From Gammaproteobacteria bacterium (GTDB lineage Bacteria; Pseudomonadota; Gammaproteobacteria; SZUA-152), in NCBI GenBank assembly GCA_011051755.1, contig DRKN01000089.1, positions 4,917 through 68,916 of the forward strand: a stretch of DNA of 64,000 bases, written 5' to 3'. The notes under the pieces were generated by a model. It was given only the letters and a program-made list of their open reading frames with translations, was not told the origin of the DNA and did not search any database. This document shows positions 1,521 to 62,231 of the stretch, piece by piece. How positions within the stretch are numbered: the first letter of the stretch is position 1; every line of letters begins with the position of its first letter. The translations under genes were made by a program, and so were the position numbers.

Positions 1521-2951
1521 TCATGACATCTCTGCACCGTAACGGCCCGGTACCGACATGCCCATTTCACGCATCCGTGCCAATTTGTAACGCAGGGTGC
1601 GCTGACTGATGCCCAGTTTTTCGGCAGCAGTCTTGCGATTGCCATGATCGGCCTTGAGCACCGACAGGATACGGCTGTATTCGTGACCCTTCATTTCATC
1701 GACCAGCGATTTGGGGCCGTCGTCGTCGCCATCCGCCAACACCGGCAGTTCATCGATCCGTTCGTATTGAATGTCTTCGGCGGCAATACATTCACCGTTG
1801 TACAGAATCAGCGCGCGCTGGATGACGTTGTCCAGTTCGCGTACATTACCGGGCCAATGATGATTCTGTAATTGTGTCTTCGCCGCCTCACTCAGCAACG
1901 GAACTTTGACCGAACTGTTGGCCGGGTCGTTGAGCAAAAGAGAGGCGGAAAGCGTGCCACTGACGGCGCGGAAATGCTTCTGCAACAGGCGCTCGGCCAG
2001 TGGCACAATATCGTCGGTGCGCTCACGCAATGCAGGAATGCGAATCGGAAAGACGTTGAGACGATAGAACAGGTCTTCACGAAAATGACCGGCCTGTACC
2101 TCTTTGCGCATATCGCGGTTGGAAGTGGCCAGCACACGCACATCCAGTTCGATGAGCTTGTTGCCGCCCAGACGCTCCACCTGCCGTTCCTGCAATACAC
2201 GCAGCAGTTTGGCCTGTAAGGCCGCATCCATTTCGGAGATTTCGTCCAGCAACAGGGTGCCACCCTGGGCCAGTTCGAACTTGCCGGGGCAGGCCTTGTA
2301 GGCGCCGGTGAAGGCGCCCTTCTCGTAACCGAACAGGGTGGCCTCGAGCATGTTGTCGGGGATCGCCGCGCAATTGATGGCGATAAAGGGCTGCCCGGCA
2401 CGCGCCGAATGGCGATGGATATGCTGCGCCAGCACCTCTTTACCGACGCCGCTCTCGCCGGTGAGCATCACCGTGGCGTCACTGACGGCGACGCGCTTTG
2501 ACAATTCCACCAATTGGCGGCTGCGCACATCCACCGCCACCATATCGTCACCGGCCAGGCCACCGGTGGCCAGTGCCGTGCCGATACGCGGATCGACGTG
2601 CAGCGCCACATTGGCCGCCAGCACCTCGGCCTCAAAGGGCTTGGTCAAATAGTCCACCGCGCCGTCACGCATGGCCTCGACGGCCATTTCAATGGAGCCG
2701 TAAGCCGTCATCAGCATCACCGGCAACGGTGGCCATTTCCGTTTGATCTGTTTCAACAGGGTATGGCCGTCCATGCGCGGCATCTGAATATCGGTAATCA
2801 CCATCTGCACCGTCTTGCGGTCGAGGATGTCCAGCGCCGCATAGCCATTATCGGCGGTTTCCGTGGCATAGCCCGCCAGGCTCAGGGTGTCGCAGAGGGC
2901 GCTGCGCAGCTCTGCATCATCTTCCACGACCAGAATTACTACTTGTTTCAT
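1521..2951 (-). CDS. fleR: Sigma-54-dependent response regulator (FleR/FlrC-like): REC + AAA+ sigma-54 interaction + HTH
   Basis: Start moved to the MKQVVILVVEDD ATG at 2949-2951, which has a GGAGG RBS. It contains GESGVGKE (Walker A), the GAFTGA sigma-54 contact motif and a C-terminal HTH. It follows fleS and precedes fliE. Confidence 0.85.
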   Translation of the reverse strand: MKQVVILVVEDDAELRSALCDTLSLAGYATETADNGYAALDILDRKTVQMVITDIQMPRMDGHTLLKQIKRKWPPLPVMLMTAYGSIEMAVEAMRDGAVDYLTKPFEAEVLAANVALHVDPRIGTALATGGLAGDDMVAVDVRSRQLVELSKRVAVSDATVMLTGESGVGKEVLAQHIHRHSARAGQPFIAINCAAIPDNMLEATLFGYEKGAFTGAYKACPGKFELAQGGTLLLDEISEMDAALQAKLLRVLQERQVERLGGNKLIELDVRVLATSNRDMRKEVQAGHFREDLFYRLNVFPIRIPALRERTDDIVPLAERLLQKHFRAVSGTLSASLLLNDPANSSVKVPLLSEAAKTQLQNHHWPGNVRELDNVIQRALILYNGECIAAEDIQYERIDELPVLADGDDDGPKSLVDEMKGHEYSRILSVLKADHGNRKTAAEKLGISQRTLRYKLARMREMGMSVPGRYGAEMS

Positions 2952-2988
2952 ATAACCTCCTGAACCGAAATCTGTCGCCGCGAATGGA

Positions 2989-4104
2989 TCATTTGTCGTC
3001 ATCCAGGCGTGGCAGTTGCAGGATAAATTCGCTGCCCTCACCCAGCCGGCTATGGACACGCACACCACCGCCGTTGGCCTGAGCCACGGCCTGCACCACG
3101 GACAGACCCAGGCCGGTGCCGTTGGCGCGGGTGGTGAAAAAGGGTTTGAAGAGATGTTTTTGCACCTCGGCTGTCATACCCGGGCCGCTATCGGTAATGG
3201 TGATTTCCAGCATGTCGCAGGCGCCCTGGCGCAGTCCCAGTCGCAGCACACCGCCCTGCCCCATGGCCTGCATGGCATTGTTGGTGATATTCAACAGGGC
3301 GCTGAGCAGGGTGCGGGGATTACCCTGCACGCGGGCACCTTCGCAGGCAGTGCGAAGCTGTAATTCAGTGCCGCGCTCCTCGCAGTGCGGCGCCACCGCG
3401 CTCGCCAGACTGGCGAGCAGAGCGTCCAATTCGATAAGCTCTTCCCCACCATAACCACTGCGTGAAAACAGCAACATGTCGTTAGTCAGCGCATCCAACT
3501 GACGCAATTGGGAGACAACCTTGCCGGCCAGTTCGGCGCGGGACGTCACATCGAGATGGGATTGCTTGAGCTGTGAGGCGTACAACAGACCCGCGGCCAA
3601 CGGCGTGCGTACCTGATGGGCGAGGCCGGCGGCCATCTCACCCAGCGCCGAGAGCCGTTGGTGCTGGCTCAGGCACTGCTGTAATTCACGGGTTTCGGTG
3701 ACATCGTTGAGCAACAGCAACTGGCCCGGCTCATCGCCCAAGGGGCAGGTGGAGATACTGACACGGCGGCCATCGGCCAGGGAGATTTCATGACCATCGT
3801 CGCTGCGGGGAGAAAAGGCGCGGCCAATGATGTCGGTCCAGCGCTCGCCCGTCAGCGGTTCGCCGAGCAGTTTGATCGCCGCAGGGTTGCATTCCTGCAC
3901 ACGCCCCGAGGCATCCAGCACCACGACGCCGGACGGCAGGGCACTGAAAATGGCTTGCAGGCGCCGAGCCTTGTCCGGCACGGGCGGTAACGCTTGATCG
4001 ACGGAATGCAGCGGGTAAGAAGGTTCCCGCCGTGGAGGAGCCAGATCGAAAACCTGAAAAGAGTGCTCCAGGGTTTGGATCTGTGGGGTTTGCTGTACGG
4101 CCAT
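2989..4104 (-). CDS. fleS: PAS-domain sensor histidine kinase (FleS/FlrB-like)
   Basis: The likely start is MAVQQTP at 4102-4104. It has the H-box LAHQVRTPL and a HATPase_c region (NAMQA...GTGLGLS). No TM segments are evident, so it is a cytoplasmic PAS kinase like FleS. Confidence 0.8.
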   Translation of the reverse strand: MAVQQTPQIQTLEHSFQVFDLAPPRREPSYPLHSVDQALPPVPDKARRLQAIFSALPSGVVVLDASGRVQECNPAAIKLLGEPLTGERWTDIIGRAFSPRSDDGHEISLADGRRVSISTCPLGDEPGQLLLLNDVTETRELQQCLSQHQRLSALGEMAAGLAHQVRTPLAAGLLYASQLKQSHLDVTSRAELAGKVVSQLRQLDALTNDMLLFSRSGYGGEELIELDALLASLASAVAPHCEERGTELQLRTACEGARVQGNPRTLLSALLNITNNAMQAMGQGGVLRLGLRQGACDMLEITITDSGPGMTAEVQKHLFKPFFTTRANGTGLGLSVVQAVAQANGGGVRVHSRLGEGSEFILQLPRLDDDK

Positions 4105-4176
4105 CGTCACGCCTCGCTCTGACTGTTGTTGTCCGCCGCGGGTTTTCCCGCAGGCGGTACCTTGACAGCCGTGATG

Positions 4177-4193
4177 GAGCAAAATACGTGCCT
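4177..4193 (-). promoter_or_regulatory. Sigma-54 (-24/-12) promoter upstream of fleS-fleR
   Basis: The minus strand reads aGGCACgtattTTGCt. GG and GC are separated by exactly 10 nt, a near-consensus match to TGGCAC-N5-TTGCW. It lies about 75 nt upstream of the fleS start. Confidence 0.6.
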
Positions 4194-4248
4194 AAATAAT
4201 TTTTTCCTTTTTATTCAGTTGCTTGGGGTATCCAAGAAAAAACAGGAG

Positions 4249-5673
4249 TCAAATTCCCGTCACGGACTCACTGCGTTGCAGGCCATACTTGCGCAATTTC
4301 TCGACGAGGGTGGTGCGGCGCATCTTCAGCCGCTTGGCGGCATGGGCCACCACACCGCCCGCCTCGTCCAGCGCCTGCTTGATCAGCGAGCACTCGACGG
4401 TGGAAATATGCTCTTTGAGGTCCAGCCCCTCACGCGGCAAGCGGGCAGGCTGTAAGGGCATCACGGGTGTCAACTGCGGATCCAGCGTGATCTGCGGCAG
4501 ATTTTCGCCACTGCCAGCGGGACGGAACTTAGCCGGTAAATCACCCACATCGACAATGCCATATGGATGCATGATGACCAGCCGTTCGAGCAGGTTGGAC
4601 AGCTCGCGCACATTACCCGGCCAGCGGTACTGGCACAGGGCAATCAGTGCGGCCGGTGTAAAGCGTACTGAGCCACGTTTTTCATTTTCCATGCGCGCGA
4701 TCAGTTCATTCACCAGCAGGGGCACATCGTCGATGCGCTCACGCAGGGGCGGCATGTCGATGGGAAAGACGTTCAGGCGGTAATACAGGTCTTCGCGGAA
4801 TTTACCCGCGCTGATCAGTTCATCAAGATTGCGATGCGTGGCGGCGACGATACGCACATCGGCGCTCAGCACTTTGTTACCGCCGATGCGTTCGAAAGTA
4901 CGTTCTTGTAGCACCCGCAACAGCTTGACCTGCATGGTCGTAGGCATATCGCCGATTTCATCGAGGAACAGGGTGCCACCCTCGGCCATTTCAAAGCGGC
5001 CGCGACGGGCGCTGATGGCGCCGGTAAAGGCGCCCTTCTCGTGACCAAAGAGTTCGCTTTCCAGCAGCTCGCCGGGAATGGCGCCACAGTTGATGGGGAC
5101 GAACGGTTTGTCACGACGGGAGGAATGGTAGTGCAGGTTGCGCGCCACCACTTCCTTACCGGTACCGGACTCACCCAGAATCAGCACCGTGGCGTCCGTG
5201 TCCGCCACCTGTTCGATGAGCTTGTGCACCTCAAGGATGCCACGGCTATTACCTACCAGACTGCGGAAAAGCTCCAGGTTCATACCACCACCGCGCTTTT
5301 GACTCAGTCGATAAACCTGGGCGCGGTGCAGAGCGTCGGAGACCTCGGCGTAACGCATGGGAAGATTGATCAGACTAAACGCGTTCTTGACCATGTCCTG
5401 GTCAAGATCATGCTCGCCATTTTCCGCAACCAGCACCAAAACAGGTATATTTCCAGGCGCCTGACGCAGTGTGTCAAAGGTTGTCTTACGCGCCTCTGCG
5501 GAGCTACACCCCCCCAGGATAATGGCCTCAACCCCATCGTCCAGCCTATCGCCGGCCGCCTGGTAGTCGATGATGGTGATCGGCTCCTGGGCAACGAATT
5601 CGAGTATCGCGGCAAGCTTGTCCCGCTGCTGCTTATCGTCTTCCACCAGCAAGATAGTCATGGAATCGGGCAT
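4249..5673 (-). CDS. fleQ: Sigma-54-dependent master flagellar activator (FleQ/FlrA-like)
   Basis: The best start is MPDSMTILLVEDD at 5671-5673, with a GGAG RBS. It has GESGTGKE, GAFTGA and a C-terminal HTH. It sits upstream of fleSR, as FleQ does in Pseudomonas. Confidence 0.8.
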   Translation of the reverse strand: MPDSMTILLVEDDKQQRDKLAAILEFVAQEPITIIDYQAAGDRLDDGVEAIILGGCSSAEARKTTFDTLRQAPGNIPVLVLVAENGEHDLDQDMVKNAFSLINLPMRYAEVSDALHRAQVYRLSQKRGGGMNLELFRSLVGNSRGILEVHKLIEQVADTDATVLILGESGTGKEVVARNLHYHSSRRDKPFVPINCGAIPGELLESELFGHEKGAFTGAISARRGRFEMAEGGTLFLDEIGDMPTTMQVKLLRVLQERTFERIGGNKVLSADVRIVAATHRNLDELISAGKFREDLYYRLNVFPIDMPPLRERIDDVPLLVNELIARMENEKRGSVRFTPAALIALCQYRWPGNVRELSNLLERLVIMHPYGIVDVGDLPAKFRPAGSGENLPQITLDPQLTPVMPLQPARLPREGLDLKEHISTVECSLIKQALDEAGGVVAHAAKRLKMRRTTLVEKLRKYGLQRSESVTGI

Positions 5674-6860
5674 TTTTTTCTCCGTGCACCAGTCGAGTAC
5701 TCTGTCCATATTCACCTTGACGAAGTACTTGGACTCCGTCAGTTTTCCCAGCCCGCTAAGTAAAACACCTGATTTCCGGTATGTCAAAATATTGTCACGA
5801 GAAATAAAGGGAAAATGCCTTTAAAAACGGAGAGCTATCGATTTTTCCTGAATACGGACACAAAGAAACAGGCTCAACTCACTATCCTTTCACCGTGGTT
5901 TGACGTCTTTCGGAGGAGCCGCTCCGGTGGGCGCGTAGTTTGTGCCCACGCGCTACAAACCGCGTTGTAGGAAATTTCTGAAGTCGATGCGATATTTTGG
6001 GCATGTGCTCGCTCCTTAATACCGAAAAACATACTGAATTTTAACCGGCACTTCGTAAGAAACAAGCTTCCAGGAGTCCTTTTCCGTGCGCAAATGCGCG
6101 CCCTGTCGTCCACAGGGCGCCCCGTTTGACCGCCCTTTGAGGTTTGATATAAACATGGCGTTTGATAGGTGTGCCCTTTGCTCGTCCACTTTACCGACCC
6201 TGTCATCTGCGGTGAGCCACCGCTATCAAAATCCGTGATCGCTTCTTGGGTCGCCAACTGGCCAATTTCATTACCGGCCTGTTGAATGGCTTCTTCGGCT
6301 TCAAACAGGGAGCCACTGATTATTGACCGTCACTTCCAGTGTCCGTTGTTTTTTGTCCGTGTGAGCAATTGTGCCATGATGAGTTTGCCTATTGTATACA
6401 AATCATGGTGTTGTAGAGTAAGCTTGGAAATCACATCATGCCAAGTTCTCACCCGGTAAGACCTTATGCTGTGTCGTTACAGCAGCTTTTCTGGAAAGAG
6501 AACAGGAATACCTCAAGATTAACCCCAACGTCAGGGCGAGACTGGAAAAATTGCCCGAACTACAACAGCCTTTTAACTTTTTCAGAACAATTGATCAGCT
6601 GGGTTTAGGCTCAAAATGATGAAGATACGAAGCCAAGACTGCCAGCACAAGAAACGATTCAGGAAGGCGACCTACGACTATCTTGGTGGTCTGGATCTTT
6701 AACCGACCGGTGTTAAACGGGAGGGATCGCCCGTTCGATAATGGGAAAGACCCAGAAAAAATAATGTATTTAAAACAGCATCACTACCGAATCAAGCGAT
6801 TTTTTTCTCCTATAAAGCCAATATTCTTGTTATTCATGGCGGCCGCTGCTGCAACAGAAA

Positions 6861-7601
6861 ATGCGTGACACCACCACAAACAACATCCACATCGAAATCT
6901 TTTCCGACGTACTCTGTGTCTGGGCCTACAGCGCACAGATCCGCTTCGACCAGCTGAAACGGGATTTCGGCGACCAACTGCAACTCCAGTACCGCTACAT
7001 TCCCATCTTTGCCGCCGTTGAAAAACGCATCGGCCAGGGCTGGAAAGACAAGGGTGGCTTTACCGGTTTCAACGAAAACCTGCACAAGACGGCCGCCGGC
7101 TGGGATCATGTCGAACTGCACCCGAAAATCTGGCTGCAAAACCGGCCGAAATCATCCACCGTGCCACACCTGTACCTGAAAGCCGTCCAGCTGCTGCAGG
7201 AACAGCACATCATCTCGACACAGGCACTAGTCCACCAAGGTTATATTGACGGAGCAAAACACGACGGCCACAGCCTGTTCGAGGCCTTTTCCTGGTACAT
7301 GCGCTGTGCCTTTTTCAAAGAGACGCAAAACATCGGTGAAATGTCCGTCCTCGACACCCTCGCCGAAGACATGGGCATCCCCGTGCCGTCCGTGCACGAA
7401 CGGCTCGACAACGGCGAGGCCCATGCCGCCCTGCAACTCGACAGCGACGCCCGCGACCACTATCGGGTACCGGGCAGCCCCACCCTGGTATTCAACGATG
7501 GTCGTCAGCGGCTATACGGCAATGTCGGCTACCGTATCATCGAGGCCAATATCCGTGAGCTGCTGAACGACGGCGACAGCGGGGAAGCCAGTTGGTGTTA
7601 G
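6861..7601 (+). CDS. DsbA-family thioredoxin-fold oxidoreductase (FrnE / 2-hydroxychromene-2-carboxylate isomerase-like)
   Basis: The N-terminus is IEIFSDVLCVWAY, with a single active-site Cys in a DsbA-like fold. 246 aa. Confidence 0.6.
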   Translation: MRDTTTNNIHIEIFSDVLCVWAYSAQIRFDQLKRDFGDQLQLQYRYIPIFAAVEKRIGQGWKDKGGFTGFNENLHKTAAGWDHVELHPKIWLQNRPKSSTVPHLYLKAVQLLQEQHIISTQALVHQGYIDGAKHDGHSLFEAFSWYMRCAFFKETQNIGEMSVLDTLAEDMGIPVPSVHERLDNGEAHAALQLDSDARDHYRVPGSPTLVFNDGRQRLYGNVGYRIIEANIRELLNDGDSGEASWC

Positions 7602-7621
7602 AGCCGGCGCCATGTTTCACC

Positions 7622-7761
7622 GGAGCGGGCCATGCCCGCGATGGTCTGCCTATGGTGTTGTAGGCGCGGCAGCCCGGTGATGAAAAACTATCGCACCTAA
7701 AGGCGCTCCTGATGTGTTGGTGATGTCTCAGGAAACCATCGCGGGCATGGCCCGCTCCTAC
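7622..7761. repeat. REPIN: inverted doublet of family-A REPs (GGAGCGGGCCATGCCCGCGAT ... ATCGCGGGCATGGCCCGCTCCTAC)
   Basis: Two copies in opposite orientation, about 95 bp apart, forming a long hairpin-capable unit. Confidence 0.8.
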
Positions 7762-7793
7762 GCAATCGATGACATCCAGGCGAAACAATACCC

Positions 7794-8525
7794 ATGGCAA
7801 TCCTCTGGCAAAAACAGGTCGGCGACACCCGTTACGAAGTGCGCACCGCCGGGCGTTCGCGACGCCTGTATTCCAATGGCGTATTCCACAGTCAGTACCA
7901 CCCGGGTCGCCCCCACGCCGGCGGCGTCTGGGATCTGCTCATGTTGCCAGCTTTTTTCCGCTCGCCCACGCGTATCAGACGCATCCTGGTGCTGGGTGTT
8001 GGTGGTGGCACGGTGATTCATCTGTTGCAACGTTTTCTGCGGCCGGAAGCAATCATCGGCGTGGAATTGAACCCTGTTCACCTACAGGTGGCGCGGCAGT
8101 TCTTCGATATCAGGAAAGACATGGCCACCCTGCACCAGGCCGATGCCGTGCAGTGGCTGAACGACTACGACGGCCCCGCCTTCGACATGATTATCGATGA
8201 CCTGTTCGGCAACGAAGACACCGGTCGCGCGGTGCCCGCCGACACGGCGTGGTGCAGCATCTTGCTGCGCAATCTCAACCGCAATGGCGTGCTGGTGATG
8301 AATTTCATCGGCGGCAAGGCCTTGCGCCACAGCGCCTGCGTCAGCGAACCGCTGATCGCCCGTCACTTCACGTCCCGCTTTCAGCTTAGTCTGCCGGCCT
8401 ACGAAAACGCCATCGGCGCCTTCCTCGGCCACCCGGCCAGCAGCCAGGGCCTGCGCAAGAATCTTGCCCGCGTGCCCGAACTCTCCAGCAAGCGCATCGA
8501 CTTTCGCATCCGGCAGATCACTTGA
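7794..8525 (+). CDS. Spermidine-synthase-like SAM-dependent methyltransferase / aminopropyltransferase family protein
   Basis: It has the VLGVGGGT glycine-rich SAM/dcSAM-binding motif and a DDLF acidic motif. 243 aa. Confidence 0.55.
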   Translation: MAILWQKQVGDTRYEVRTAGRSRRLYSNGVFHSQYHPGRPHAGGVWDLLMLPAFFRSPTRIRRILVLGVGGGTVIHLLQRFLRPEAIIGVELNPVHLQVARQFFDIRKDMATLHQADAVQWLNDYDGPAFDMIIDDLFGNEDTGRAVPADTAWCSILLRNLNRNGVLVMNFIGGKALRHSACVSEPLIARHFTSRFQLSLPAYENAIGAFLGHPASSQGLRKNLARVPELSSKRIDFRIRQIT

Positions 8526-8743
8526 TAAGCGCCGGAGGAAGGTGCTGTAGAAATTCCATTTCTTTCATCATTGAACGATTTCAGTACCATCGAGCACACA
8601 GCGCGCGCCACGAACAGGTGTAGTGTGCGCCGTGCGCACAAGATGGATATCCCATTCCTCTGTAAACGCTGCATCTCTGCGATGAGCTGAATAATGACTC
8701 TTTTCTTTGCGCTCCCCGCCCCCCTGCGCCCACTTCATTTGAC

Positions 8744-11248
8744 TCAACCCTGCCGCAATACCACCAGCGGTGGACTGCTCACCACCCGCCGCGTACCCAG
8801 CAAACCCGCCAATCCGACACCCAGCCCGCCACCCACCGGCCCCAGCAACCATAACCAAAAATTGACGGTGTATTCCAGCTCCAGCACCTGCGTCGCCAAC
8901 ACGTAGCCCAGCACGCTGGCGAGCGCCGCGGCCAACAACCCTGCCAATGCGCCGAGAGTGACGAACTCGCTGGCCAGACTCTGCCACAGGCGGCTGCGGC
9001 GCGCCCCGAGGGCACGCAGCACGGCATTCTCGCGCAGACGTTCGTCGAGACTGGATTGAATCGCGGCGTACAACACCGTGAGTCCAGCGGCGAGGGTGAA
9101 CAGAAATACATATTTCACCGCCAACACCACACGCTCGATGATACTGCGAATCTGATTCATCAGCGCCGACACATCGATCACCGTAAGATTGGGAAAACGT
9201 TTGATCAGTGCATCCATCTGTGCCACGTGCTGCGGGGCCAGAAAGAAACTGGTGATATAACTGGCCGGATAATCCTGCAGCAGACCCGGCGGCGACAACA
9301 CGAAAAAATTGGCGCGAAAACTGTCCCATTGCACACTGCGCAGGCTGGTCACCGTTGCTGTCACTCTTTGCCCGGCAATGTCGTAAGTCAGTCGATCACC
9401 AAGAGCGATACCGAGGGTACGGGCAATGCCCTCCTCCACGGAAAATTGCGCCACGTCAATGGCGTTCCCTGTTGCATCGAGCGCCCACCACTGGCCAGCG
9501 GTAATGGCATTATCGACTTGTCGTCGTGTCGTCCAGGAAAGATTGAACTCCCGCTCGACAAGACTCTGCGCATGCTCGTCCCGATAGTCACCGGGGCCGA
9601 CCGGCTTGTCATTAATACCCTTCAAGCGCGCGCGCACCATGGGGTAAAACGTCGCCTCAGGCAGTCCCGTATCACGGAAAAAGGCCTGTACATCGGCCAG
9701 CTGACCGGGTTGAATATTGATCACGAAGCGATTCGGCGCATCCACCGGCAACCGCCCCGCCCACGCGTCCAGCAGGTCATCGTGCACCACGCCCAACAAC
9801 AGCAACACCATCAAGCCCAGGCCGAAGGCCATCACCTGCGCCACGCTGGCCCCGGGCCGGCGGCTCAGGTTGGCCAGTCCGAAGCGCCATGCCACCTGCC
9901 CCCGGCGCGGCAACCGCCGCAACAAGCGCACCAGCAACGCCGCACCCAGCCACAGCACCAGTGCGGTAACGGTGATCCCGGCGATCATCGCCAGAGCCAG
10001 CGGCCCATCACCCGCCTGCCACCCGATCAACGTGGCGAGGATCAGCAGTCCCAGCAAATAAGAACCGGCACTGGCCGGGCGCAGTCCCCCCAGTTCACGA
10101 CGCAGCACACGCAGGGTCGGCACCGACTTGAGCTGTATCACCGGCGGCAGGGCAAAGCCCAGCAAGCCACCCAGGGCCACGGCCATCCCCATCAACACCG
10201 GCAGCAATGAAGCCGGCGGCAAACTCACCATAAATAGCGGCCCCAGCAGCGTCACCAACACCCCCTGCGCGGCAAAGCCCAGCAGCGAACCGAGCAACCC
10301 CGCCAGCAGGCCGAGGGTGGACATCTGCCACAAAAACAAACGGTTGATCTGTCCCTGCCGCGCACCCAGACAGCGCAGCACGGCACAGGTGTCGAGGTGA
10401 CGACGGGCAAAGCGCCGCGCCGCCATGGCGATGGCCACGCAGGCCAACACCACGCCCACCACGGCGGCCAGACCGAGAAACTGTTGCGCCCGCTGCAAGG
10501 CATTGCGAACCTCCGGACGCGCATCGCGCACGCCCTCCATGCGTTCGCCCGCGCCAAGGCGATTCATTATCGCTGAGCGAAAATGCGCCACGGCATCGCT
10601 CTCCCCTGCCAGCAGCAGCGTGTATTGCATGCGGCTGCCTTCCTGTTCCAGGCCACTGGCGGGCAGATCGGCGAGATTCATCAACAGGCGCGGGGCAATG
10701 CTGAACATGGCGCCGCTGCGATCCGGCTCATAACGGAGTACGGCAGCGATGCGCAGCGTAACATCGCCGACCTCGACGCGATCCCCCACCTCAAGCCCGA
10801 GCTGCTGCAACAGCAGCGGTTCCACCCACACCGCACCGCGCGGTGGCGGCCCCGTGCGGATCCGGGTGGCCGCGAACGGCGCCGATGCCGTGCGCAACTG
10901 GCCACGCAGGGGATAACCCGGCCCAGCGGCCTTGATCTCCGCCAGCCGCGCACCTTCACCCGCCATCACCATACTGCGGAAGGCACGGAATTCGGCGTGG
11001 CGCAGGCCCAATGTCTCGGCCCGTGTCCGCCATGCCGGCGGAAGCGGGTGATCGGCCAGCAGCCGCAGATCGGCGCCCAGCAGTTCACCGGCCTGACGGC
11101 CCAGGGCCTGACCGATGCGATCAGTGAAAAAAGCCACTGCGGTGACGCAGGTGACGGCGATCAGCAATGCCGCCAACAGCACCCGTAGCTCACCGCTGCG
11201 CCAGTCACGCCGCAGCAGGCGCAGCGCCAGCCGCATCATGCGGTGCAC
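8744..11248 (-). CDS. ybbP: ABC transporter permease with duplicated FtsX domains (YbbP family)
   Basis: 834 aa with many TM helices. It lies directly downstream of the YbbA-like ATPase, and tesA is divergent, so the synteny tesA<>ybbA-ybbP matches E. coli. Confidence 0.8.
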
Positions 11249-20419: not shown

Positions 20420-20848
20420 CTACTTGATTTCCAATAATTGCATCTTGTGTGCAAAATATTCAAACACCTTTCGCTCTCTACCAATATTGCATGCGCCACT
20501 TGTTTTTGTTACTGAACTTGGATAAACAATGCCATTGTTTGCAACAGCGACAGCCGTATATTTCGCAATACACCGCTCCTTATTTTCTGCTAGTGTCTCG
20601 ATTAGCAAAACATAAAAATTCCCAATCCGCTCTGCATGAGGAATATTGGTTTGAGAATGATGAATAAACCGGCAATTCTTCGATGATTCTTTCTCAAAGA
20701 AATGAATTTTTTCCATTTTACCTTTTGGCTGTGTCACTGATAGCGTACAATTTGCATTTAGCTCCAGCTTGGAGTCAAAGATTAATAGTGGGCCGGCATA
20801 TGAACAACCTGTGACCGTAAAAAAAATTACAAAAGAAAAACTTTTCAT
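20420..20848 (-). CDS. tai4: Putative Tai4-like immunity lipoprotein (cognate to the upstream Tae4)
   Basis: The start MKSFSFVIFFTVTGCSY gives a signal peptide and a lipobox Cys. About 142 aa. The 4-nt ATGA overlap with the tae4 stop is the usual effector/immunity coupling. The local GC is far below that of the flanking genes. Confidence 0.5.
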   Translation of the reverse strand: MKSFSFVIFFTVTGCSYAGPLLIFDSKLELNANCTLSVTQPKGKMEKIHFFEKESSKNCRFIHHSQTNIPHAERIGNFYVLLIETLAENKERCIAKYTAVAVANNGIVYPSSVTKTSGACNIGRERKVFEYFAHKMQLLEIK

Positions 20849-21279
20849 GGCAGTGTCCACATCCAAATCGTTTTTGCATCCCAATATGAGTCCCCGACAG
20901 CAACGTTGTTTTCCCATAAATCGATATGACCCTGACCGTTAAAACCAGGGACATTCATATAACAAACAACTCCTTTTTTTCCAATCGCGTTTGCGGGAGC
21001 CGATCCACTTGGCTGGGCATTCCAACCGAGAGTTCGCATTCCCCATACGCTCGGTAGAGCTAAAATAGAAGCTAAATCCTGGGCGCCACGAATATAACCA
21101 TGAGGACACTTGTTCTTCGGGGATCTTTTGAAGGCATCTAAAAGCTTTGGGTCAGCCCTGACAAGTGCTTCACTCATTCGTATTGCGCACGTATTGGGAA
21201 AATGCATTGAGCATGTGTGTATCTGTGTAGACTGTGTTTTATAATTTGTTTTCACTTTTGTAAACGCAGGCTTCATCAT
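20845..21279 (-). CDS. tae4: Tae4-family type VI secretion amidase effector (peptidoglycan DL-endopeptidase)
   Basis: 144 aa. NTCAIRMSEAL matches the Tae4 catalytic-Cys block (N-A-C-P-I-R-M-S in Salmonella/Enterobacter Tae4). The C-terminal GQGHIDLWEN...WMWTLP matches the Tae4 His block and C-terminus. A GAGGAG RBS is present. Confidence 0.7.
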   Translation of the reverse strand: MMKPAFTKVKTNYKTQSTQIHTCSMHFPNTCAIRMSEALVRADPKLLDAFKRSPKNKCPHGYIRGAQDLASILALPSVWGMRTLGWNAQPSGSAPANAIGKKGVVCYMNVPGFNGQGHIDLWENNVAVGDSYWDAKTIWMWTLP

Positions 21280-27701: not shown

Positions 27702-28394
27702 ATGAGCAACAATGCGCAAAAACTGGATTTCGCCACCGTGATCGCCAGCGCCGTTCACGACATGAAAAACTCCCTTACCCTGCTACTGGACACGCTGGAT
27801 GACACCGCCAGCGAGCAAAGCATTGCAGCAACCCCCTTGCAGGAAAAGCTACTGCAAGCTCAACATGAAGGGAAAAGGCTCAACCGAAATCTCATCCAGC
27901 TACTAGCACTCTATCGCCTGGAGCGTCGCCAGCTATTCATCAATATCACCGAGAACGGTGTTGCCGAACTACTCGAAGATGTCGCCATGGAAAACCAGCA
28001 ACTGCTGGATGCCAGAAATATAAAACTGGAAATAGATTGTGAAAGAGGACTCATCGGATTTTTTGATCGTGAGCTTATTAGCGGAATCGTTAATACCATC
28101 ATCAACAATTCCTACCGCTACACCAAAAACACCATACGCCTCAGTGGAAAAAATCAAGGCCGCTATCTGTGCATTCATATAGAGGATAATGGCCCTGGCT
28201 ACCCGGAAAAAATGCTACACGGTGAAAGTAACACGGACTCACCCATCGACTTCCAAACCGGCAGCACTGGTCTTGGCCTCTATTTCGCTGCGCAGATCGC
28301 TCGAATGCACAGTAATAGTGAATGTCATGGCTATACCGAAACCAGCAACGATGGCATCAACAAGGGTGGCAAATTCAGTCTGTTCTTACCCTGA
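27702..28394 (+). CDS. Soluble, sensor-less histidine kinase (HisKA-like H-box + HATPase_c)
   Basis: The start MSNNAQKLDFATVIASAVHDMKNSL is 13 nt after the receiver-TPR stop. It has the N-box IINNSYRYT and the G-boxes DNGPGY and GSTGLGL. About 230 aa with no TM or sensor domain. Confidence 0.75.
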   Translation: MSNNAQKLDFATVIASAVHDMKNSLTLLLDTLDDTASEQSIAATPLQEKLLQAQHEGKRLNRNLIQLLALYRLERRQLFINITENGVAELLEDVAMENQQLLDARNIKLEIDCERGLIGFFDRELISGIVNTIINNSYRYTKNTIRLSGKNQGRYLCIHIEDNGPGYPEKMLHGESNTDSPIDFQTGSTGLGLYFAAQIARMHSNSECHGYTETSNDGINKGGKFSLFLP

Positions 28395-28536
28395 CACCGA
28401 CGGCAAACGGGGCGGCCGGCCCGCTTTTGCAATCCAGCCCTGTCATCAATCCCTGAGATTACACATATAGGACGGTAGGTTTCACGCATCGGTCGAGAGC
28501 AGTGACGCCGATAAATAGGGAGATGTCTATCCATAT

Positions 28537-28666
28537 TTGTGCGCACAGCGCACACTACACTTGCCCGTAGCATGCACTGTGCGCACGACATCCCTGAAAT
28601 AGAACCACTCAGCAACAAAAAACATGAAATACAAGCCTGTAGGGTGGGCACGTCTTTGGTGCCCAC
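28537..28666. repeat. REP cluster: family-C doublet (TGTGCGCACAGCGCACACTAC ... CGTAGCATGCACTGTGCGCACGAC, 28537-28590) plus a family-B copy (28637-28666)
   Basis: Family C (GTAGCGTGCGCCGTGCGCAC) also occurs at 8620-8639, 37339-37363 and 60181-60228. Confidence 0.75.
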
Positions 28667-28727
28667 GCGGTTGACTGTAATGATATAGTTACTTCATTTG
28701 TCTAAAACCCCTAACCGGAGAAAACGA

Positions 28728-29441
28728 ATGGAATTGCCAAATTTAAGGCGCGAAATCAGATACGGAATGCCTGCCGCAGATCAAGTCATATTCAATAGAC
28801 ATTACGTGCTGGGTTATTCGTACTATTTTCGCCAAGCAAAATGGGCTTTGGAAATTGTAGATCCTGACAATATTCGCTTGGATCGCGCAGATAACTTTCG
28901 ACCGGATTACCGAATACCCGAGAATTTTCGGGCTGACCTCGTTGATTATTCCGGCTCTGATTATGACCGCGGCCATCTCGTGGCAAGCGCCAACCAAAGA
29001 GAAACAAAATTACAAAACAGTGAAACATTTCTTTTATCCAATACGTCGCCACAAAGACCCCAATTCAACAGAGATATATGGGGTAAATTGGAAGCTGAAA
29101 TCAGAAATCTGAATGCCAAACCAAAAATACTGGAAACGTATGTCATTTGCGGCCCTATTTTCTATTTTGACAAGCCAGTCGAATGCATAGGAAGCAACGA
29201 TTCCAACAAGGTAAAAATTCCGGTGCCTCATGCCTATTTTAAGTCTGTCTTGACCGAGAATAACAGAGGAACCCTCCACATGTGGTCATTCATACTGGCG
29301 AACGAGGAATCCAACCAGGCACTGGATACATTTGCAGTACCAACGACATTGGTTGAAAAATTAGCCGGCATCAATTTATGGGAAAGTTTGGTAGGAAGAA
29401 AAATTGACCGGGAAAAATCAAGAGTCCGCAAAATGTGGTGA
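28728..29441 (+). CDS. DNA/RNA non-specific endonuclease (Endonuclease_NS / EndoG-NucA family), no signal peptide
   Basis: The beta-beta-alpha-metal catalytic motif DRGHLVASANQ is present. The start MELPNLRR has a GGAG RBS. 237 aa in markedly AT-rich local DNA. Confidence 0.75.
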   Translation: MELPNLRREIRYGMPAADQVIFNRHYVLGYSYYFRQAKWALEIVDPDNIRLDRADNFRPDYRIPENFRADLVDYSGSDYDRGHLVASANQRETKLQNSETFLLSNTSPQRPQFNRDIWGKLEAEIRNLNAKPKILETYVICGPIFYFDKPVECIGSNDSNKVKIPVPHAYFKSVLTENNRGTLHMWSFILANEESNQALDTFAVPTTLVEKLAGINLWESLVGRKIDREKSRVRKMW

Positions 29442-29699
29442 ACCCTCAAAAAAACCAGCCGCAAAATTTTGATGCCTTGCCACAGGCGGGCGCACAGTGG
29501 CCAAACACGGCATATATTGTTGCCGGGTTAATATTGTCGATTGGTGGTGACGCAGGAATCCCAACATTGTTGGTTTCGTTGGGGTTCGCAAGCTCACCAC
29601 CAACCTGCAAAACAGTCATTATCTTGTTAACTTAATGGCATTGATGGGCTTTCCATCCCATTGCCCTATTTCCAGCTTAGTGCTCATCACCGTCTCGGG

Positions 29700-30896
29700 C
29701 TAACGTCGTGATTCAATAACTTCACGTATCTCATCGTCGGTTAACACGATGGGGTTGGTGCGCATACTGCCACTGCGACAACCGGCAACGATGCTGTCCA
29801 CGTCCGATGCCCGGACACCATAGTGACCCAGGCGCGGAAGCGCCATTCGTTGGATCCATTCATGGAGTCTCGTGATCAACGCCGCCCATGCCTGCGGGTC
29901 GGTTAATTCTGCACCCGGATTCAACAAACGACCAAGCTGCGCATATTTTTCCAGCGCCGGACTGTCCGGCTGGCGTTGGCGCAGGCTGCGGATATTGCGC
30001 TCAGTGGCGGCTGCAACCAAGGTGCCACAGACAACGCCGTGGGGAATAGGAAAATAGGCACCGAGTGGCGACGCCAAACCATGTACGGACCCCAAGCCCA
30101 CCTGTGCCAGGGTAATGCCGGAGATGAGCGCGCCATAAGCTATGCCGGCACGTCCTTGCCTGGCCGCCGCACCATCCCCCCCTTCCCAGGCCGCCAAAAA
30201 ATGCTGGGTCATCGCTTGCAGACCACTCCATGCCAAGGCGTCCGTTAGCGGGTTTGCACGACACGACAGATACGATTCCAACAACTGGGTGAAAGCATCC
30301 ATGCCATTGGCGGCGATCAGCGCGGGTGGACAGGAGGCCAGCAATAACGGATCGACAACGGCAACCTCGGCCACCAGATCGGGATGACGAAACGATTTTT
30401 TAAAGCCATCACGCCCTTGCTCACTAAGCACCGCATTCATGGTGGCTTCACTGCCAGTACCGGCAGTAGTGGGTACCGCAATGAAAGGCACGGCAGGCCC
30501 CGCATAACTGAGACCCTGACCAACACCTTCCAGATAATCCATGACCGAATTCCCTTTTGGCAAGAGTCCGGCAATGGCCTTGGCCGCATCCAACACACTG
30601 CCACCACCAATTCCCAGAACGATATCAATACCTTTTTGGTAAAACTCCGCCACAATCCGATCCACCTGCTGTGGCGATGGCTCCCCGTCGACGATGACAT
30701 CGCTCCACTGCAATCCTGCCGCCGTCAGTGCATCCCGAAGCGGCGGCCAGTAGGGCGTGGCGCGAAAAGAGGAGGCTCCGGTCACCAATAACATCTGCCG
30801 ACCATAGGTGGCCACCAGGGCTGGTAGTTGCGTGTGGCTGTTTTCAGCAAAAATAATCCGTGGCAGACGGACGGTGGAAAATGCGGGTATCTCCAT
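29700..30896 (-). CDS. Iron-containing (group III) alcohol dehydrogenase
   Basis: The start MEIPAFSTV is at 30894-30896. It has GIGGGSVLDAAKA and the Fe-ADH His cluster. The track ORF has a long N-terminal over-extension. Confidence 0.8.
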   Translation of the reverse strand: MEIPAFSTVRLPRIIFAENSHTQLPALVATYGRQMLLVTGASSFRATPYWPPLRDALTAAGLQWSDVIVDGEPSPQQVDRIVAEFYQKGIDIVLGIGGGSVLDAAKAIAGLLPKGNSVMDYLEGVGQGLSYAGPAVPFIAVPTTAGTGSEATMNAVLSEQGRDGFKKSFRHPDLVAEVAVVDPLLLASCPPALIAANGMDAFTQLLESYLSCRANPLTDALAWSGLQAMTQHFLAAWEGGDGAAARQGRAGIAYGALISGITLAQVGLGSVHGLASPLGAYFPIPHGVVCGTLVAAATERNIRSLRQRQPDSPALEKYAQLGRLLNPGAELTDPQAWAALITRLHEWIQRMALPRLGHYGVRASDVDSIVAGCRSGSMRTNPIVLTDDEIREVIESRR

Positions 30897-60228: not shown

Positions 60229-60516
60229 CCCCCAGGATCAGGAAATCATTGAAACTACGAAATTTCGAACCGGACTCTGACGACTCCCCACAAAAAACCT
60301 GGTGGGGTGGGCAGGTTTTTCATGCCCGGGTGGAATATGCGTCAACGACTAAATTTCGGACCGAGTCCGGAGACCCAAAACACTTCGCGGGGCAAACCCT
60401 AACGAGAGAGGCTGCCTGAATTTATGTCCCAAACACCTTCAATCATGCTGCACACTTTGCAAACAGAGTATTCAAAATACGGTAAAAATCTGTTAATGGC
60501 ACAACAATAACCATGG

Positions 60517-60882
60517 CTACTGACTCAGATTCACCGCAATTCCGACAAAATCCTCAACGTTCTTTTTCTCAACATCCTCAATGATATAAATCTTTATATG
60601 CCGCCTTTTTTTACCCTTGCCTTCCAGCACCTTATCGGGATCTGGGAATTCAGCGCCAAAACTGAATTCAATGGAAATGTGTTTCGCATAAACGAAAATA
60701 CCGCCTATCAAGGTATTGGAAAGGATAAACACCAAGCCACCATATTTTATATCTTCAACTAAACCCGAATTGGTATTGTGAAATATCGTTCTTATCGATA
60801 TAAGAATTTCAAACATTTCCGGTGATTGATATTGAATGTCGTTTAAAAAACTATCAACTTTATCATTATTCGAAAAATTCAT
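60517..60882 (-). CDS. DUF1801 (YdhG-like) domain protein
   Basis: 121 aa. It follows the DUF1801 pattern (...KYGGLVF...IGGIFVYAKHISIEFSFGAEFPDPDKVLEGKGKKRRHIKI...). The region has very low GC. Confidence 0.55.
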   Translation of the reverse strand: MNFSNNDKVDSFLNDIQYQSPEMFEILISIRTIFHNTNSGLVEDIKYGGLVFILSNTLIGGIFVYAKHISIEFSFGAEFPDPDKVLEGKGKKRRHIKIYIIEDVEKKNVEDFVGIAVNLSQ

Positions 60883-61094
60883 CTCAGTTACTCACTTAGC
60901 AATCTTTCTTAAAAAAACGTCTCTCATTACCTGTAGTACATCGCTCAGGCTCAGTGATAGTAATGCCCAGTATTCAAACATCGTAGAGCAGCATACCTCA
61001 CACCAGACCACCATATTTACTAGCGATCACAGGGTCATATCTTAGCGCATAATGTCATACGATCATTAATAAACATAGATCTCCAACATTATAA

Positions 61095-61349
61095 TTATGG
61101 CATCAGCAACCGAAAATTGGCCACCGCTACTGAAATGCCATTTACCACAACTTCCACTGCCTGCATTCCTGGATAGAACACGCGAGCAGTGATTTTTCTA
61201 CGTTCTTTACTTGCGCCTTTCATCCACTGCTCTGCTATTCCAATCACAGCATCAGAATGATCTTTAGCAATATCATTTAGGTTATTTGCAACCGAACGTC
61301 GGACATATTCTTTATCATCATCTTTGAGCCGTTCCAGTAGATCGATCAC
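61095..61349 (-). pseudogene. C-terminal fragment of an AlkD-like (HEAT-repeat) DNA alkylation repair glycosylase
   Basis: ...KEYVRRSVANNLNDIAKDHSDAVIGIAEQWMKGASKERRKI matches the conserved C-terminal block of DNA alkylation repair proteins (PF08713). Only about 80 codons are in frame. Upstream sequence is in other frames and is interrupted. Confidence 0.55.
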
Positions 61350-61580
61350 TGGAGAAGTGATTTTTGATATACATCGGCAATCTCATCGCCCAAGGCAATC
61401 CTGACCGACGTCCTTCCGAAACCAATCGCCGTACGTGTTGATTGTTATCAGTAGTCCAGGTTTTCAACACCGATAATGTTTTTTAAAGACTGGGGGAGAT
61501 GCTCTACTTCATTGCATCGCGGTTGACATCCTCAAAAAAGCTGTGCTACCGGGCTACAGATTCTGCTGAGAAGCCAAATA

Positions 61581-62084
61581 TTATTTATTATTGATGCTCA
61601 GCATTGAGTAAAGAACATTTGACAGGCGCTTTATTTTTTCAATTAATTCTTCATGCCCTTTTTGATGGATTTTTGTTTCTGGACTGGACATTACTTCTTC
61701 CACAAATCTTTTTTGTGTGTTTTGGTAATCTTCGTGATCAGGAAATAGTTCACGGATTTTTTCAAGTTCTTCGGCATCCAGCCATATACCGCCACACTGA
61801 GGACATTCATCAATCTCGATCTGGAATTTACTGCTATAGAAACGGCGCATCATTATTACATCTGTATCACGCGGGCAATTCAGCCTTTTGTTCACATCGA
61901 CTAAAGGGTTGTGATATTCTCTTAGGTGTTCAATTAAAACTTCCCCCATAGCAATGGATGATTGATTAAGTTTATCTAGCTCAAAATTATCGAACCATAT
62001 CCCCCCACATCCTTCTGAAATATCCAGATCTATTCCGGCTACTTTTATTGGTTTAAGCAATTTCCTAGTCCTCGGACACTTCAT
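61581..62084 (-). CDS. Protein with two tandem zf-TFIIB-type zinc ribbons (CPxC...C.GCGGIWFD; CPRD...CPQCGGIWLD)
   Basis: 167 aa. Two copies of the CxxC-x(n)-CxxCGGIW(F/L)D motif are characteristic of PF13453 zinc ribbons. AT-rich context. Confidence 0.55.
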   Translation of the reverse strand: MKCPRTRKLLKPIKVAGIDLDISEGCGGIWFDNFELDKLNQSSIAMGEVLIEHLREYHNPLVDVNKRLNCPRDTDVIMMRRFYSSKFQIEIDECPQCGGIWLDAEELEKIRELFPDHEDYQNTQKRFVEEVMSSPETKIHQKGHEELIEKIKRLSNVLYSMLSINNK

Positions 62085-62231
62085 CTTATAAGTCCTTTCA
62101 TTGAAAAAAGAGAAATTACACCTTTTCTGGTGCGGGTATATGGATATTTTATCATGAATCCCGTCATTCTAAAGGAACTACACCCTCCTCAGAAACCCCT
62201 GTAGAATGTGGTAAGTTCCACGAACCACATC

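Follow-up and report, generated by a model that had tools for sequence, protein, structure and literature searches.

Bacterial homologues of the mitochondrial endonuclease EndoG are secreted, and cells are protected from nucleases of this kind by export, compartmentation or inhibitors (PMC2790893). Anabaena NucA is a secreted protein with a signal peptide, NuiA being its back-up cytoplasmic inhibitor, and the extracellular nuclease of Serratia marcescens is also secreted and needs disulfide bonds formed on export for its activity (PMC2790893). Non-specific nucleases of the Endonuclease_NS/Endonuclea_NS_2 group are, in addition, used in conflict as polymorphic toxins (YxiD, Rhs, FhaB and type VII), which carry a trafficking region at the N-terminus and are encoded next to their immunity gene; these toxin nucleases and the nuclease described here belong to group 5 of the His-Me finger nucleases (PMC5714182). 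Cell-death effectors shared by prokaryotes and eukaryotes include NucA/EndoG-like domains (PMC8195603). We found nothing specific in the literature on a characterised leaderless bacterial EndoG.

Here we analyzed a nuclease gene of this known family, located at positions 28728–29441 (+ strand) of a 64-kb stretch of gammaproteobacterial DNA (hereafter, the window). Its deployment is mildly unusual: the locus represents a coherent clade of proteins of about 237 aa that show no visible safeguard in the form of export, compartmentation or an inhibitor, and yet are strongly conserved across many phyla. Should the enzyme prove active in the cytoplasm, one would have to ask how a non-specific nuclease is tolerated and what triggers it; if it is a low-activity turnover enzyme, the finding is an ordinary one.

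Domain, fold and predicted location of the nuclease

The open reading frame runs on the + strand from a TTG at 28698 or an ATG at 28728 to 29441. The ATG, which is preceded by the Shine-Dalgarno sequence GGAG (28717–28720) at a distance of 7 nt, is the likely translation start, and the resulting 237-aa protein scored 146.3 bits (cut-off, 23; E = 1.4e-42) with Pfam Endonuclease_NS (PF01223), residues 12–220 being aligned with profile positions 10–219 of 223. The score for Endonuclea_NS_2 (16.8 bits) was under the 27-bit cut-off. The DRGH motif corresponds to D80-R81-G82-H83; among 39 clade members, R58, R81, G82, H83, N105 (the Mg-ligand Asn), N114, E122 and R126 were invariant, and D80 was present in 35. 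These motifs align with those of CPS-6 and Drosophila EndoG. An AlphaFold2 model had a mean pLDDT of 90.4 (a model from a shallow alignment, with a pLDDT of 55, was set aside), and a Foldseek search with it gave TM scores of 0.82 to 3ism, 0.81 to 3s5b and 0.83 to 1zm8. The fold match spans all 237 aa, with no additional C-terminal domain. Sequence and predicted fold together thus show a complete, single-domain nuclease of the EndoG/NucA type (DRGH, beta-beta-alpha-metal) with all catalytic residues intact. By analogy with EndoG, it would cut DNA and RNA with Mg2+, His83 acting as the general base and Asn105 as a metal ligand.

The best matches in both sequence and fold were eukaryotic EndoG proteins (C. 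elegans CPS-6, Drosophila, mouse/human), with a full-length phmmer match at E = 1.7e-29 and Foldseek TM scores of 0.81–0.83 (rmsd 2.4–2.7 Å, 32–34% identity). The window nuclease has the length of mature EndoG, shares its DRGH, Mg-ligand Asn and Glu motifs, and resembles it as a presumably intracellular nuclease related to cell-death machinery. Unlike EndoG, however, it lacks a mitochondrial presequence and is not kept in a separate compartment, and no EndoGI-like inhibitor was seen. A special ancestry of, or sister relationship to, eukaryotic EndoG was considered and rejected, as signal-peptide-bearing bacterial groups score higher (37–40% identity to eukaryotic EndoG, compared with 33–35% for the 237-aa clade) and the window protein ranks only 141st to 182nd of 365 against the CPS-6 and Drosophila EndoG fragments. 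Anabaena NucA shares the Pfam family, the fold and the DRGH motif, although its match is weaker (E = 3.4e-19, with only residues 21–152 aligned). The NucA/NuiA pair is a precedent for self-protection against a nuclease of this type, whereas the window nuclease has neither a signal peptide nor a conserved neighbouring gene. The Serratia nuclease is of the same family and fold but is merely 23% identical, and its activation by disulfide bonds on export does not apply here because the clade conserves a single cysteine (C141). Compared with the polymorphic toxins, the window nuclease has neither a trafficking region nor an adjacent immunity gene.

The N-terminus of the nuclease is not hydrophobic (the Kyte-Doolittle mean of 15-residue segments peaks at 0.31), and the earliest start is preceded, at a distance of 9 nt, by an in-frame stop codon; a signal peptide is therefore impossible. 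The N-terminus is hydrophilic throughout the clade, so the leaderless trait is family-wide, and the enzyme would be expected to remain in the cytoplasm. The first-pass annotation had described a leaderless Endonuclease_NS protein with a DRGH motif and had named a signal peptide or missing catalytic residues as grounds for abandoning that description; both were looked for, neither was found, and the description stands.

Conservation, distribution and origin of the 237-aa clade

Members of the clade are 63–95% identical, with dN/dS values of 0.03–0.05 (dS being saturated between phyla in this comparison). The protein is exactly 237 aa long at 41 of 80 loci and 236–242 aa long at the others, begins with the common pattern M-x-L/I-P-x-L-R-x-E-x-R-Y-G-M-P, and is at least 95% identical in 105 of 237 alignment columns. 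Among five members of the lineage of the window, dN/dS was 0.04–0.15 at dS values of 0.2–0.95. Substitution patterns therefore show that the clade is under very strong purifying selection.

A pattern-limited scan of 185,579 species representatives found the gene in at least about 200, scattered over more than 15 phyla, and many of the carriers are marine or sediment organisms. The window nuclease is 91–93% identical to those of its own lineage; the next best matches (81–83%) come from Deltaproteobacteria, Omnitrophota, Syntrophales and Bacteroidetes, and other Gammaproteobacteria are merely 65–79% identical. Judged by these sequence identities, the distribution is patchy and incongruent with taxonomy. 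Inside lineages, however, the gene is stable and syntenic, as in Psychromonas, Nitrosomonas, Nitrospinaceae, Lutibacter and Thioalkalispiraceae. Every match in a search of phages and plasmids was below 36% identity, and relatives occurred on 2 of 2.9 million viral contigs.

The GC content of the nuclease gene is 0.427, compared with 0.566 for the window, and its GC3 is 0.433, compared with 0.55–0.73 in the flanking genes, which bears out the earlier description of a low-GC islet. This low GC content persists, unameliorated, across the lineage of the window, whereas in most lineages of the clade the gene is near the host level (median gene-minus-flank difference, –0.003). The gene is a singleton that lies outside the module upstream of it, and it was probably acquired horizontally, by an old transfer from a donor of lower GC content into a Chromatiales-like gammaproteobacterial lineage. 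No tRNA or integrase gene was found at the islet. A mobile cassette with conserved ends was also considered and rejected, as family-wide conservation is limited to the Shine-Dalgarno sequence; only the closest relatives share, in addition, some 25 nt of similarity on the 3΄ side. We also sought an empty site, and the two distant copies of the upstream module that lack the nuclease (L085 and L086) lack the Fe-ADH gene of the other flank as well, so that such a site could not be defined.

Genomic neighbourhood and the overlapping ORF

The nuclease gene directly follows a VWA/REC-TPR/HATPase module, the domain matches of which agree with the VWA/REC-TPR/HK assignment in the first-pass annotation. 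In the clade it is always solitary, has its own ribosome-binding site and is flanked by unrelated housekeeping or metabolic genes. Neighbouring ORFs were clustered twice, first those of 60 aa or longer, selected greedily, and then every ORF within 1.5 kb that reached 40 aa, and neither clustering found anything in common beyond same-lineage synteny; within the latter set, no ORF family was shared by more than 3 of the 80 loci. Neither the nuclease nor the ORF that overlaps its stop codon matched PADLOC-DB v2.0.0. The 141 immediate neighbours showed no enrichment in defence or mobile genes (Pfam and PADLOC), and since their PADLOC cross-hits were all to generic helicase, methyltransferase and ATPase domains, a defence-island context is absent. 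A type II toxin-antitoxin pair was rejected as well, there being no small conserved antitoxin adjacent to or overlapping the gene and no suppression of synonymous variation.

Because no partner gene travels with the nuclease, self-damage would have to be limited by the properties of the enzyme itself or by its expression. Possible restraints include a low specific activity or salt sensitivity like that of EndoG, a substrate preference, and silencing of the AT-rich gene. The best reading of the sequence comparisons is that no immunity gene next to the nuclease keeps its toxicity to the cell in check.

The first-pass annotation had proposed such a partner, namely, a 66-codon GTG-initiated ORF (29435–29635, + strand) that overlaps the nuclease stop codon. 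The ORF and the overlap exist, and the ORF has a single hydrophobic segment (Kyte-Doolittle mean of 1.73 over 19 residues), but a role as a gene, inhibitor or immunity partner did not hold up. The corresponding DNA is absent from two relatives (L004 and L084) and different in two others (L003 and L005), although all four are syntenic and their nucleases are 91–93% identical. A tblastn search of the 80 loci gave no match beyond the source contig, which is itself represented among them by L001 and L002. Family searches gave none, the ORF was not called on the source contig, and its GC1/2/3 values are flat (0.48/0.46/0.49). As judged from these comparisons, the ORF is spurious and should not be annotated as a gene. 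Adjoining it, 29634–29687 (– strand) carries what is left of a 167-aa ORF, namely its first 18 codons; L003 has the ORF intact (tblastn, 83% identity over 18 aa), which marks this part of the intergenic region as a hotspot of indels.

Possible roles of the nuclease

The candidate roles are that of a latent cell-death or antiviral effector and that of an enzyme of nucleic-acid turnover. The nearest relatives outside the clade include fusions of the nuclease to a TIR domain (P0122, P0126, P0271, P0272 and P0276) or to a caspase-like Peptidase_C14 domain (P0124). P0124 adjoins Cas10/RAMP genes of a type III CRISPR system and P0126 adjoins an AAA_13 ATPase; one member of the clade itself adjoins a SIR2-STAND-TPR protein. 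In P0122, P0126, P0271 and P0124, the nuclease domain has the same N-terminal boundary and is cytoplasmic, whereas the window protein consists of this domain only and is encoded among housekeeping genes. The fusions are rare (about five clusters), and the three that were scored (P0122, P0124 and P0126) are only 46–48% identical to the window protein, which makes them a weak basis for transferring a function to the clade.

We tentatively favor a reading in which the window protein is a solitary cytoplasmic nuclease, acquired by old horizontal transfer, that would most likely act, in view of the TIR or caspase-like fusion partners of these closest outside-clade relatives, as a latent intracellular effector degrading nucleic acids in cell death or against invaders; taken as a whole, this combination is put at slightly less than an even chance. 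Abortive infection, one of the roles suggested in the first-pass annotation, is accordingly possible by analogy, with indirect support from the same fusions. However, very slow evolution and stable vertical inheritance within genera are more readily expected of a physiological enzyme than of a gene in an arms race, and a non-specific nuclease without a sensor has no obvious means of discriminating between self and invader.

A physiological cytoplasmic nuclease is the alternative that survives best, although we consider it unlikely on balance. Such an enzyme could have an accessory housekeeping function in RNA/DNA turnover, nucleotide salvage or the processing of damaged or hybrid nucleic acids, and would be tolerated because, in the cytoplasm, protected duplex DNA would be a poor substrate for it, as for EndoG. 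The low dN/dS in the clade, the amelioration of GC content to the host level in most lineages, the stable synteny inside several genera and families, the housekeeping flanks free of defence or mobile enrichment, and the strong, conserved Shine-Dalgarno sequence are all in agreement with it. It is harder to reconcile with the rarity of the gene among species representatives and with the fusion of its nearest relatives to TIR or caspase domains; moreover, no functional link to a repair or salvage operon was seen.

It is improbable that the enzyme works in the periplasm or outside the cell, reaching it by export independent of a signal peptide or by release through lysis or vesicles, and feeding on or clearing eDNA as NucA and the Serratia nuclease would. 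A role as an eDNA nuclease, also put forward in the first-pass annotation, is possible by analogy with this family precedent: characterised bacterial homologues are secreted (PMC2790893), most of the more distant relatives bear signal peptides or membrane anchors, and eDNA is a resource in the marine and sediment habitats of many carriers. Nevertheless, the entire clade lacks a hydrophobic N-terminus, a longer N-terminus is not possible at the window locus, there is no extra C-terminal domain and just one conserved cysteine, and the carrier phyla differ widely in their envelopes and secretion systems.

A more specific form of the effector reading, to which we assign a still smaller probability, is that the 237-aa clade is the bacterial counterpart of apoptotic EndoG, that is, a latent nuclease with neither sensor nor inhibitor that a physico-chemical change sets free once the cell is infected or damaged. 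The trigger could be a redox shift, decompaction of the nucleoid or a loss of ion homeostasis; the unleashed enzyme would destroy the nucleic acids of cell and invader, and a need to remain just under the threshold of toxicity would explain the extreme conservation.

That the gene is a foreign, AT-rich passenger, shut down by xenogeneic silencing and useless to its host, is very unlikely; its low, unameliorated GC3 (0.43) in a host with GC3 values of 0.55–0.73 would fit, but the reading frame is intact and the five lineage members show the constraint described above. The weakest candidate, a toxin with a linked immunity or antitoxin gene, perhaps as a type VI secretion or contact-dependent cargo, draws on the hydrophobic ORF at the stop codon and on an islet with a Tae4-family T6SS effector in the same window (20.4–21.3 kb), but is largely refuted and has scarcely any probability left, given that the ORF is missing or replaced in close relatives and lacks tblastn matches in other loci, a family and coding bias, that no ORF family is shared nearby, that synonymous sites vary freely, and that no PAAR, Rhs, LXG or other trafficking domain is present. 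The related proposal of a secreted-effector cargo in the first-pass annotation fails for want of a trafficking domain and an immunity gene, and because the clade occurs in many unrelated phyla.

Expression signals and repeated elements

The nuclease would be transcribed alone, from a promoter just 3΄ of the repetitive elements upstream. A candidate extended –10 promoter, TGaTATAGT (28681–28689, + strand; about 38 nt before the start codon), was read by eye and is kept in L003 and L005, although a promoter consensus scan did not report it. A GC-rich palindrome followed by TTTT (28405–28429, + strand) lies just past the histidine-kinase-like gene (stop codon, 28392–28394), is also kept in L003 and L005, and is likely an intrinsic terminator, a function deduced from its sequence; if so, the nuclease gene forms a separate transcription unit. 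The sole upstream element conserved family-wide is the Shine-Dalgarno sequence AAAGGAG, and no LexA box or other operator upstream of the gene was convincing by eye. Synonymous-site entropy is flat, and no hidden overlapping gene or RNA was found inside the coding sequence; as synonymous sites are free to vary along the whole gene, an embedded antisense or overlapping element is not indicated. No Rfam family was found within 28300–29800.

Two REP-type palindromes lie upstream of the gene. The first (28539–28586; family GTAGCGTGCGCCGTGCGCAC) has 20-nt arms that are 85% complementary and recurs at 8620, 37341 and 60205 (0.01 copies expected by chance), and the second (28634–28669; family GTAGGGTGGGCAC..GTGCCCAC) recurs at 5917, 45669, 12552 and other positions, the chance expectation being 0.00–0.01 matches per REP pattern in the window. 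The REP copies noted upstream in the first-pass annotation are thus real, with both families recurring across the 64 kb. Its view that they bound the islet is contradicted by L004 and L084, in which the nuclease occupies the same place between short intergenic regions without REPs; the REPs therefore do not delimit a mobile unit, and the comparison shows them to be incidental, later colonisers of intergenic space.

On the 3΄ side, a long imperfect nested hairpin (29534–29610, with a core palindrome at 29556–29587) lies between the convergent nuclease and Fe-ADH genes. The palindrome that had been likened to a further REP family is real and stable (z = –3.45), but its membership in such a family is not supported, since no second copy was found within the window at up to three mismatches. 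The hairpin has no Rfam family and is not conserved in relatives, and it may form the end of a transcript or stabilise one.

Sequence and fold of the nuclease

The ORF at positions 28698-29441 (+ strand) encodes the nuclease, and the start is probably the ATG at 28728, because GGAG lies 7 nt before this codon, which is also where relatives start. The 237-aa product scored 146 bits against Pfam Endonuclease_NS (E 1.4e-42; cut-off, 23 bits), with the entire domain covered. When solved structures were searched by sequence, eukaryotic EndoG was the top match (CPS-6, 1.7e-29; Drosophila EndoG, 2.7e-27), and Anabaena NucA, EXOG and the Serratia nuclease ranked below it. A special kinship of eukaryotic EndoG to the clade (the closely related leaderless nucleases of ~237 aa) was considered and rejected. 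An AlphaFold2 model computed from an alignment of 94 sequences (mean pLDDT 90.4) superposed on EndoG, NucA and the Serratia nuclease along its full length (TM 0.81-0.83), so that the protein has no additional N- or C-terminal domain. DRGH (residues 80-83), the metal ligand Asn105, Glu122, Arg58 and Arg126 are all in place, and the active-site residues were invariant across 39 clade members, save Asp80 (35/39). The N-terminus is hydrophilic (top Kyte-Doolittle mean over 15 residues, 0.31), and a signal peptide is impossible because an in-frame stop lies 9 nt upstream of the earliest possible start. The first-pass annotation of a leaderless Endonuclease_NS protein carrying DRGH is thus upheld.

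Composition and surroundings of the gene

The nuclease gene is compositionally foreign, with a GC content of 0.427 versus 0.566 for the window and a GC3 of 0.433 versus 0.55-0.73 for flanking genes, in agreement with the low-GC islet described earlier. No tRNA gene or integrase was found at the islet flanks, and the contig was derived from a hydrothermal-vent metagenome. Upstream lie genes for a VWA protein, a REC-TPR protein and a 230-aa HATPase_c protein, so that the gene does directly follow a VWA/REC-TPR/HK module; downstream, Fe-ADH and ABM monooxygenase genes are convergent. Since a GC-rich palindrome and then a T-run, kept in relatives, occur directly 3' of the kinase-like gene, the nuclease is likely a separate transcription unit. 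The motif TGaTATAGT, noticed by eye in the stretch from the second REP to the Shine-Dalgarno sequence and conserved in two syntenic relatives (L003 and L005), is a plausible extended -10 element. At L085:5836-6537 (- strand), a more distant copy of the upstream module is followed not by a nuclease but by a predicted outer-membrane beta-barrel-like ORF and by one that, by eye, looks like an IS200/RAYT-type Y1 transposase. Such transposases are enzymes of the kind that mobilise REPs.

Four close relatives (L003, L004, L005 and L084; nucleases 91-93% identical) share the kinase-nuclease-Fe-ADH synteny. The 333-nt spacer upstream of the nuclease contains two palindromes, each with several further copies in the 64 kb window, and these are genuine REPs. 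They are missing from L004 and L084, indicating that they arrived later than the nuclease; REPs therefore do not bound the islet, contrary to what had been proposed, and they are incidental to the gene. The 3' palindrome, also taken for a REP, is single-copy in the window: the long nested hairpin at 29534-29610, which coincides with the hydrophobic stretch of the small ORF, is stable (z -3.45) and not conserved, and neither a second copy in the window nor an Rfam match was found.

The overlapping 66-codon GTG ORF does exist at 29435-29635, and its suggested role as a partner or immunity gene was rejected. Searches of Pfam, NCBIfam and PADLOC gave no family for it; it was left uncalled on the source contig, has flat GC over the three codon positions, and had no tblastn match in the 80 nuclease loci other than the window's own contig (L001 and L002). 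The close relatives are decisive against it as a gene, because its DNA is absent from them: the nuclease lies only ~45 nt from Fe-ADH in L004 and L084, and the spacer of L003 and L005 is a different sequence. The small ORF is incidental to the nuclease. Of a 167-aa ORF, only codons 1-18 are left at positions 29634-29687 (- strand), and this remnant shows that the spacer is a site of repeated insertion/deletion. The ORF is intact in L003 (L003:4796-5299, - strand), between the nuclease and Fe-ADH genes, and has no Pfam family.

Distribution and conservation of the clade

More than 2000 database proteins matched the nuclease, and almost all of the best 120 had a length of 237 aa and an identity of 74-95%; those with a source name come from very different phyla. 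A one-genome-per-species scan yielded at least 209 loci, and the 80 that were fetched encode nucleases 63-93% identical to the window protein. Their hosts are Gamma-, Beta-, Delta-, Alpha- and Zetaproteobacteria, Omnitrophota, Bacteroidota, Zixibacteria, KSB1, Cloacimonadota, Campylobacterota, Acidobacteriota, Chloroflexota, Nitrospinota, Gemmatimonadota, Latescibacterota, Calditrichota, one Anaplasmataceae genome and one archaeal bin. The sequences nearest to the window protein outside its lineage are delta-proteobacterial or come from Omnitrophota, Syntrophales and Bacteroidetes (81-83%), whereas other gammaproteobacteria reach just 65-79%; this disagreement between similarity and taxonomy points to horizontal transfer. 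The transfers are evidently old, given that synonymous sites are saturated between phyla. The gene is syntenic within genera, and its GC equals that of its flanks in most hosts (median difference, -0.003), the window's lineage being among the exceptions (all members 0.09-0.14 below). With a dN/dS of 0.03-0.05 and 105 of 237 alignment columns at least 95% identical, the clade is ultra-conserved as well as horizontally scattered. A search of 1.84 billion library representatives gave just 40 clusters at E 1e-30, and the best representative among the matches listed was only 53% identical. The N-terminal motif also occurs in a dozen other leaderless clusters, and most of the more distant relatives carry a signal peptide or membrane anchor.

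Neighbouring genes

Clustering of all ORFs of the 80 loci revealed no conserved neighbour beyond same-lineage synteny, save an ABC-F-like ATPase (8/80), and a second clustering, of every ORF of 40 aa or more found within 1.5 kb, gave no family in more than three loci (E 1e-3). The genes next to the nuclease have ordinary metabolic and housekeeping functions, and their PADLOC matches amount to generic cross-matches with helicases, methyltransferases or ATPases. Along the nuclease gene, synonymous variation is uniform and thus indicates no embedded element, and no family-wide flank conservation was found outside the Shine-Dalgarno sequence.

Among closest relatives only, ~25 nt past the stop are similar in seven loci from different phyla (L003, L005, L006, L007, L008, L012 and L015; consensus roughly AATyTyCAAGGAwATAA), with no conserved reading frame. 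Methylococcaceae/Methylomicrobium loci (L032:1115-1534, L046:4728-5114 and L076) share a lineage-specific 128-139-aa ORF without a Pfam family, directly 3' of the nuclease on the same strand, which begins 14 nt past the nuclease stop in L046.

Phage and plasmid collections are essentially free of the clade. One of 2.9 million viral contigs carries a member, and one more has a 51%-identical relative that adjoins a terminase gene. The latter (L090:1063-5687) is leaderless, directly follows the terminase large subunit (gpA) and lies near a Mu-like portal gene. Some HNH nucleases assist phage terminases, and the arrangement recalls these. The former, an 83%-identical clade member on an IMG/VR contig (L089), is flanked by a 1033-aa SIR2-nSTAND5-TPR protein (1692-4793) and a 1277-aa WD40 protein (6877-10710), a conflict-system-like neighbourhood unlike those of the 80 loci.

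Possible roles of the nuclease

The gene shown here is an intact, leaderless and solitary EndoG-type nuclease gene of foreign composition; the first observation was largely correct, save for the partner ORF and the REP boundaries. The best explanation taken whole, which we put forward tentatively, is a latent cell-death or anti-invader effector, as suggested by the domain fusions of relatives and the single L089 context. Outside the clade, the relatives nearest to the window protein (46-48% identical to it) include TIR-nuclease fusions (P0122 and P0126; further examples are P0271, P0272 and P0276) and a caspase-like-nuclease fusion, P0124. P0124 (L092:70-6226) adjoins type III CRISPR genes (Cas10/Cmr2 and RAMP) as well as a transposase gene, and P0126 (L091:3459-7407) adjoins a divergent AAA_13/SMC_N ATPase gene. 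NucA/EndoG-like nucleases, caspases and TIR are effector domains common to prokaryotic conflict systems and eukaryotic apoptosis (PMC8195603). Counting against an effector, however, are the housekeeping setting of the loci, the slow evolution of the protein and the lack of any sensor. It is possible, if rather doubtful, that the protein is a physiological turnover or repair nuclease.

In the standard view, bacterial EndoG homologues are secreted, and self-protection comes from export, from the formation of disulfides or from an inhibitor, for example NuiA (PMC2790893). In contrast, the window nuclease has no signal peptide, one conserved cysteine only and no linked gene, and none of these safeguards visibly applies. 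The enzyme probably acts in the cytoplasm, its toxicity presumably held down by intrinsic properties or expression and not by a neighbouring immunity protein. Export or release independent of a signal is improbable, a silenced passenger gene is very hard to credit for this intact ORF, and a toxin-immunity pair or T6SS cargo can practically be set aside. The nuclease joins a well-known family, its deployment being mildly unusual (leaderless, stand-alone and extremely conserved), and does not, on present evidence, represent a new type of system.

P0313 (L094:446-1927; 493 aa), on a 2.4-kb contig, joins Endonuclease_NS to a receiver domain and an AraC-type HTH; the fusion may be genuine or an artefact of gene calling.

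Other features of the window

A second AT-rich islet (20423-21279, - strand; GC3 0.35-0.40) encodes a Tae4-family T6SS amidase effector (20848-21279, - strand; Pfam 1.5e-12), followed by a 165-aa ORF without a family match (20423-20917, - strand) that could be its immunity protein. The deepest GC trough of the window (60500-62100; 0.40-0.42) contains small ORFs with DUF1801 and Zn-ribbon domains, and an additional trough lies at 6-7 kb. ARAGORN called an unusually long tRNA-Ile (GAT) of 93 nt at 8053-8145 (- strand), within a long ORF (7794-8525); either the call may be false or the ORF spurious.
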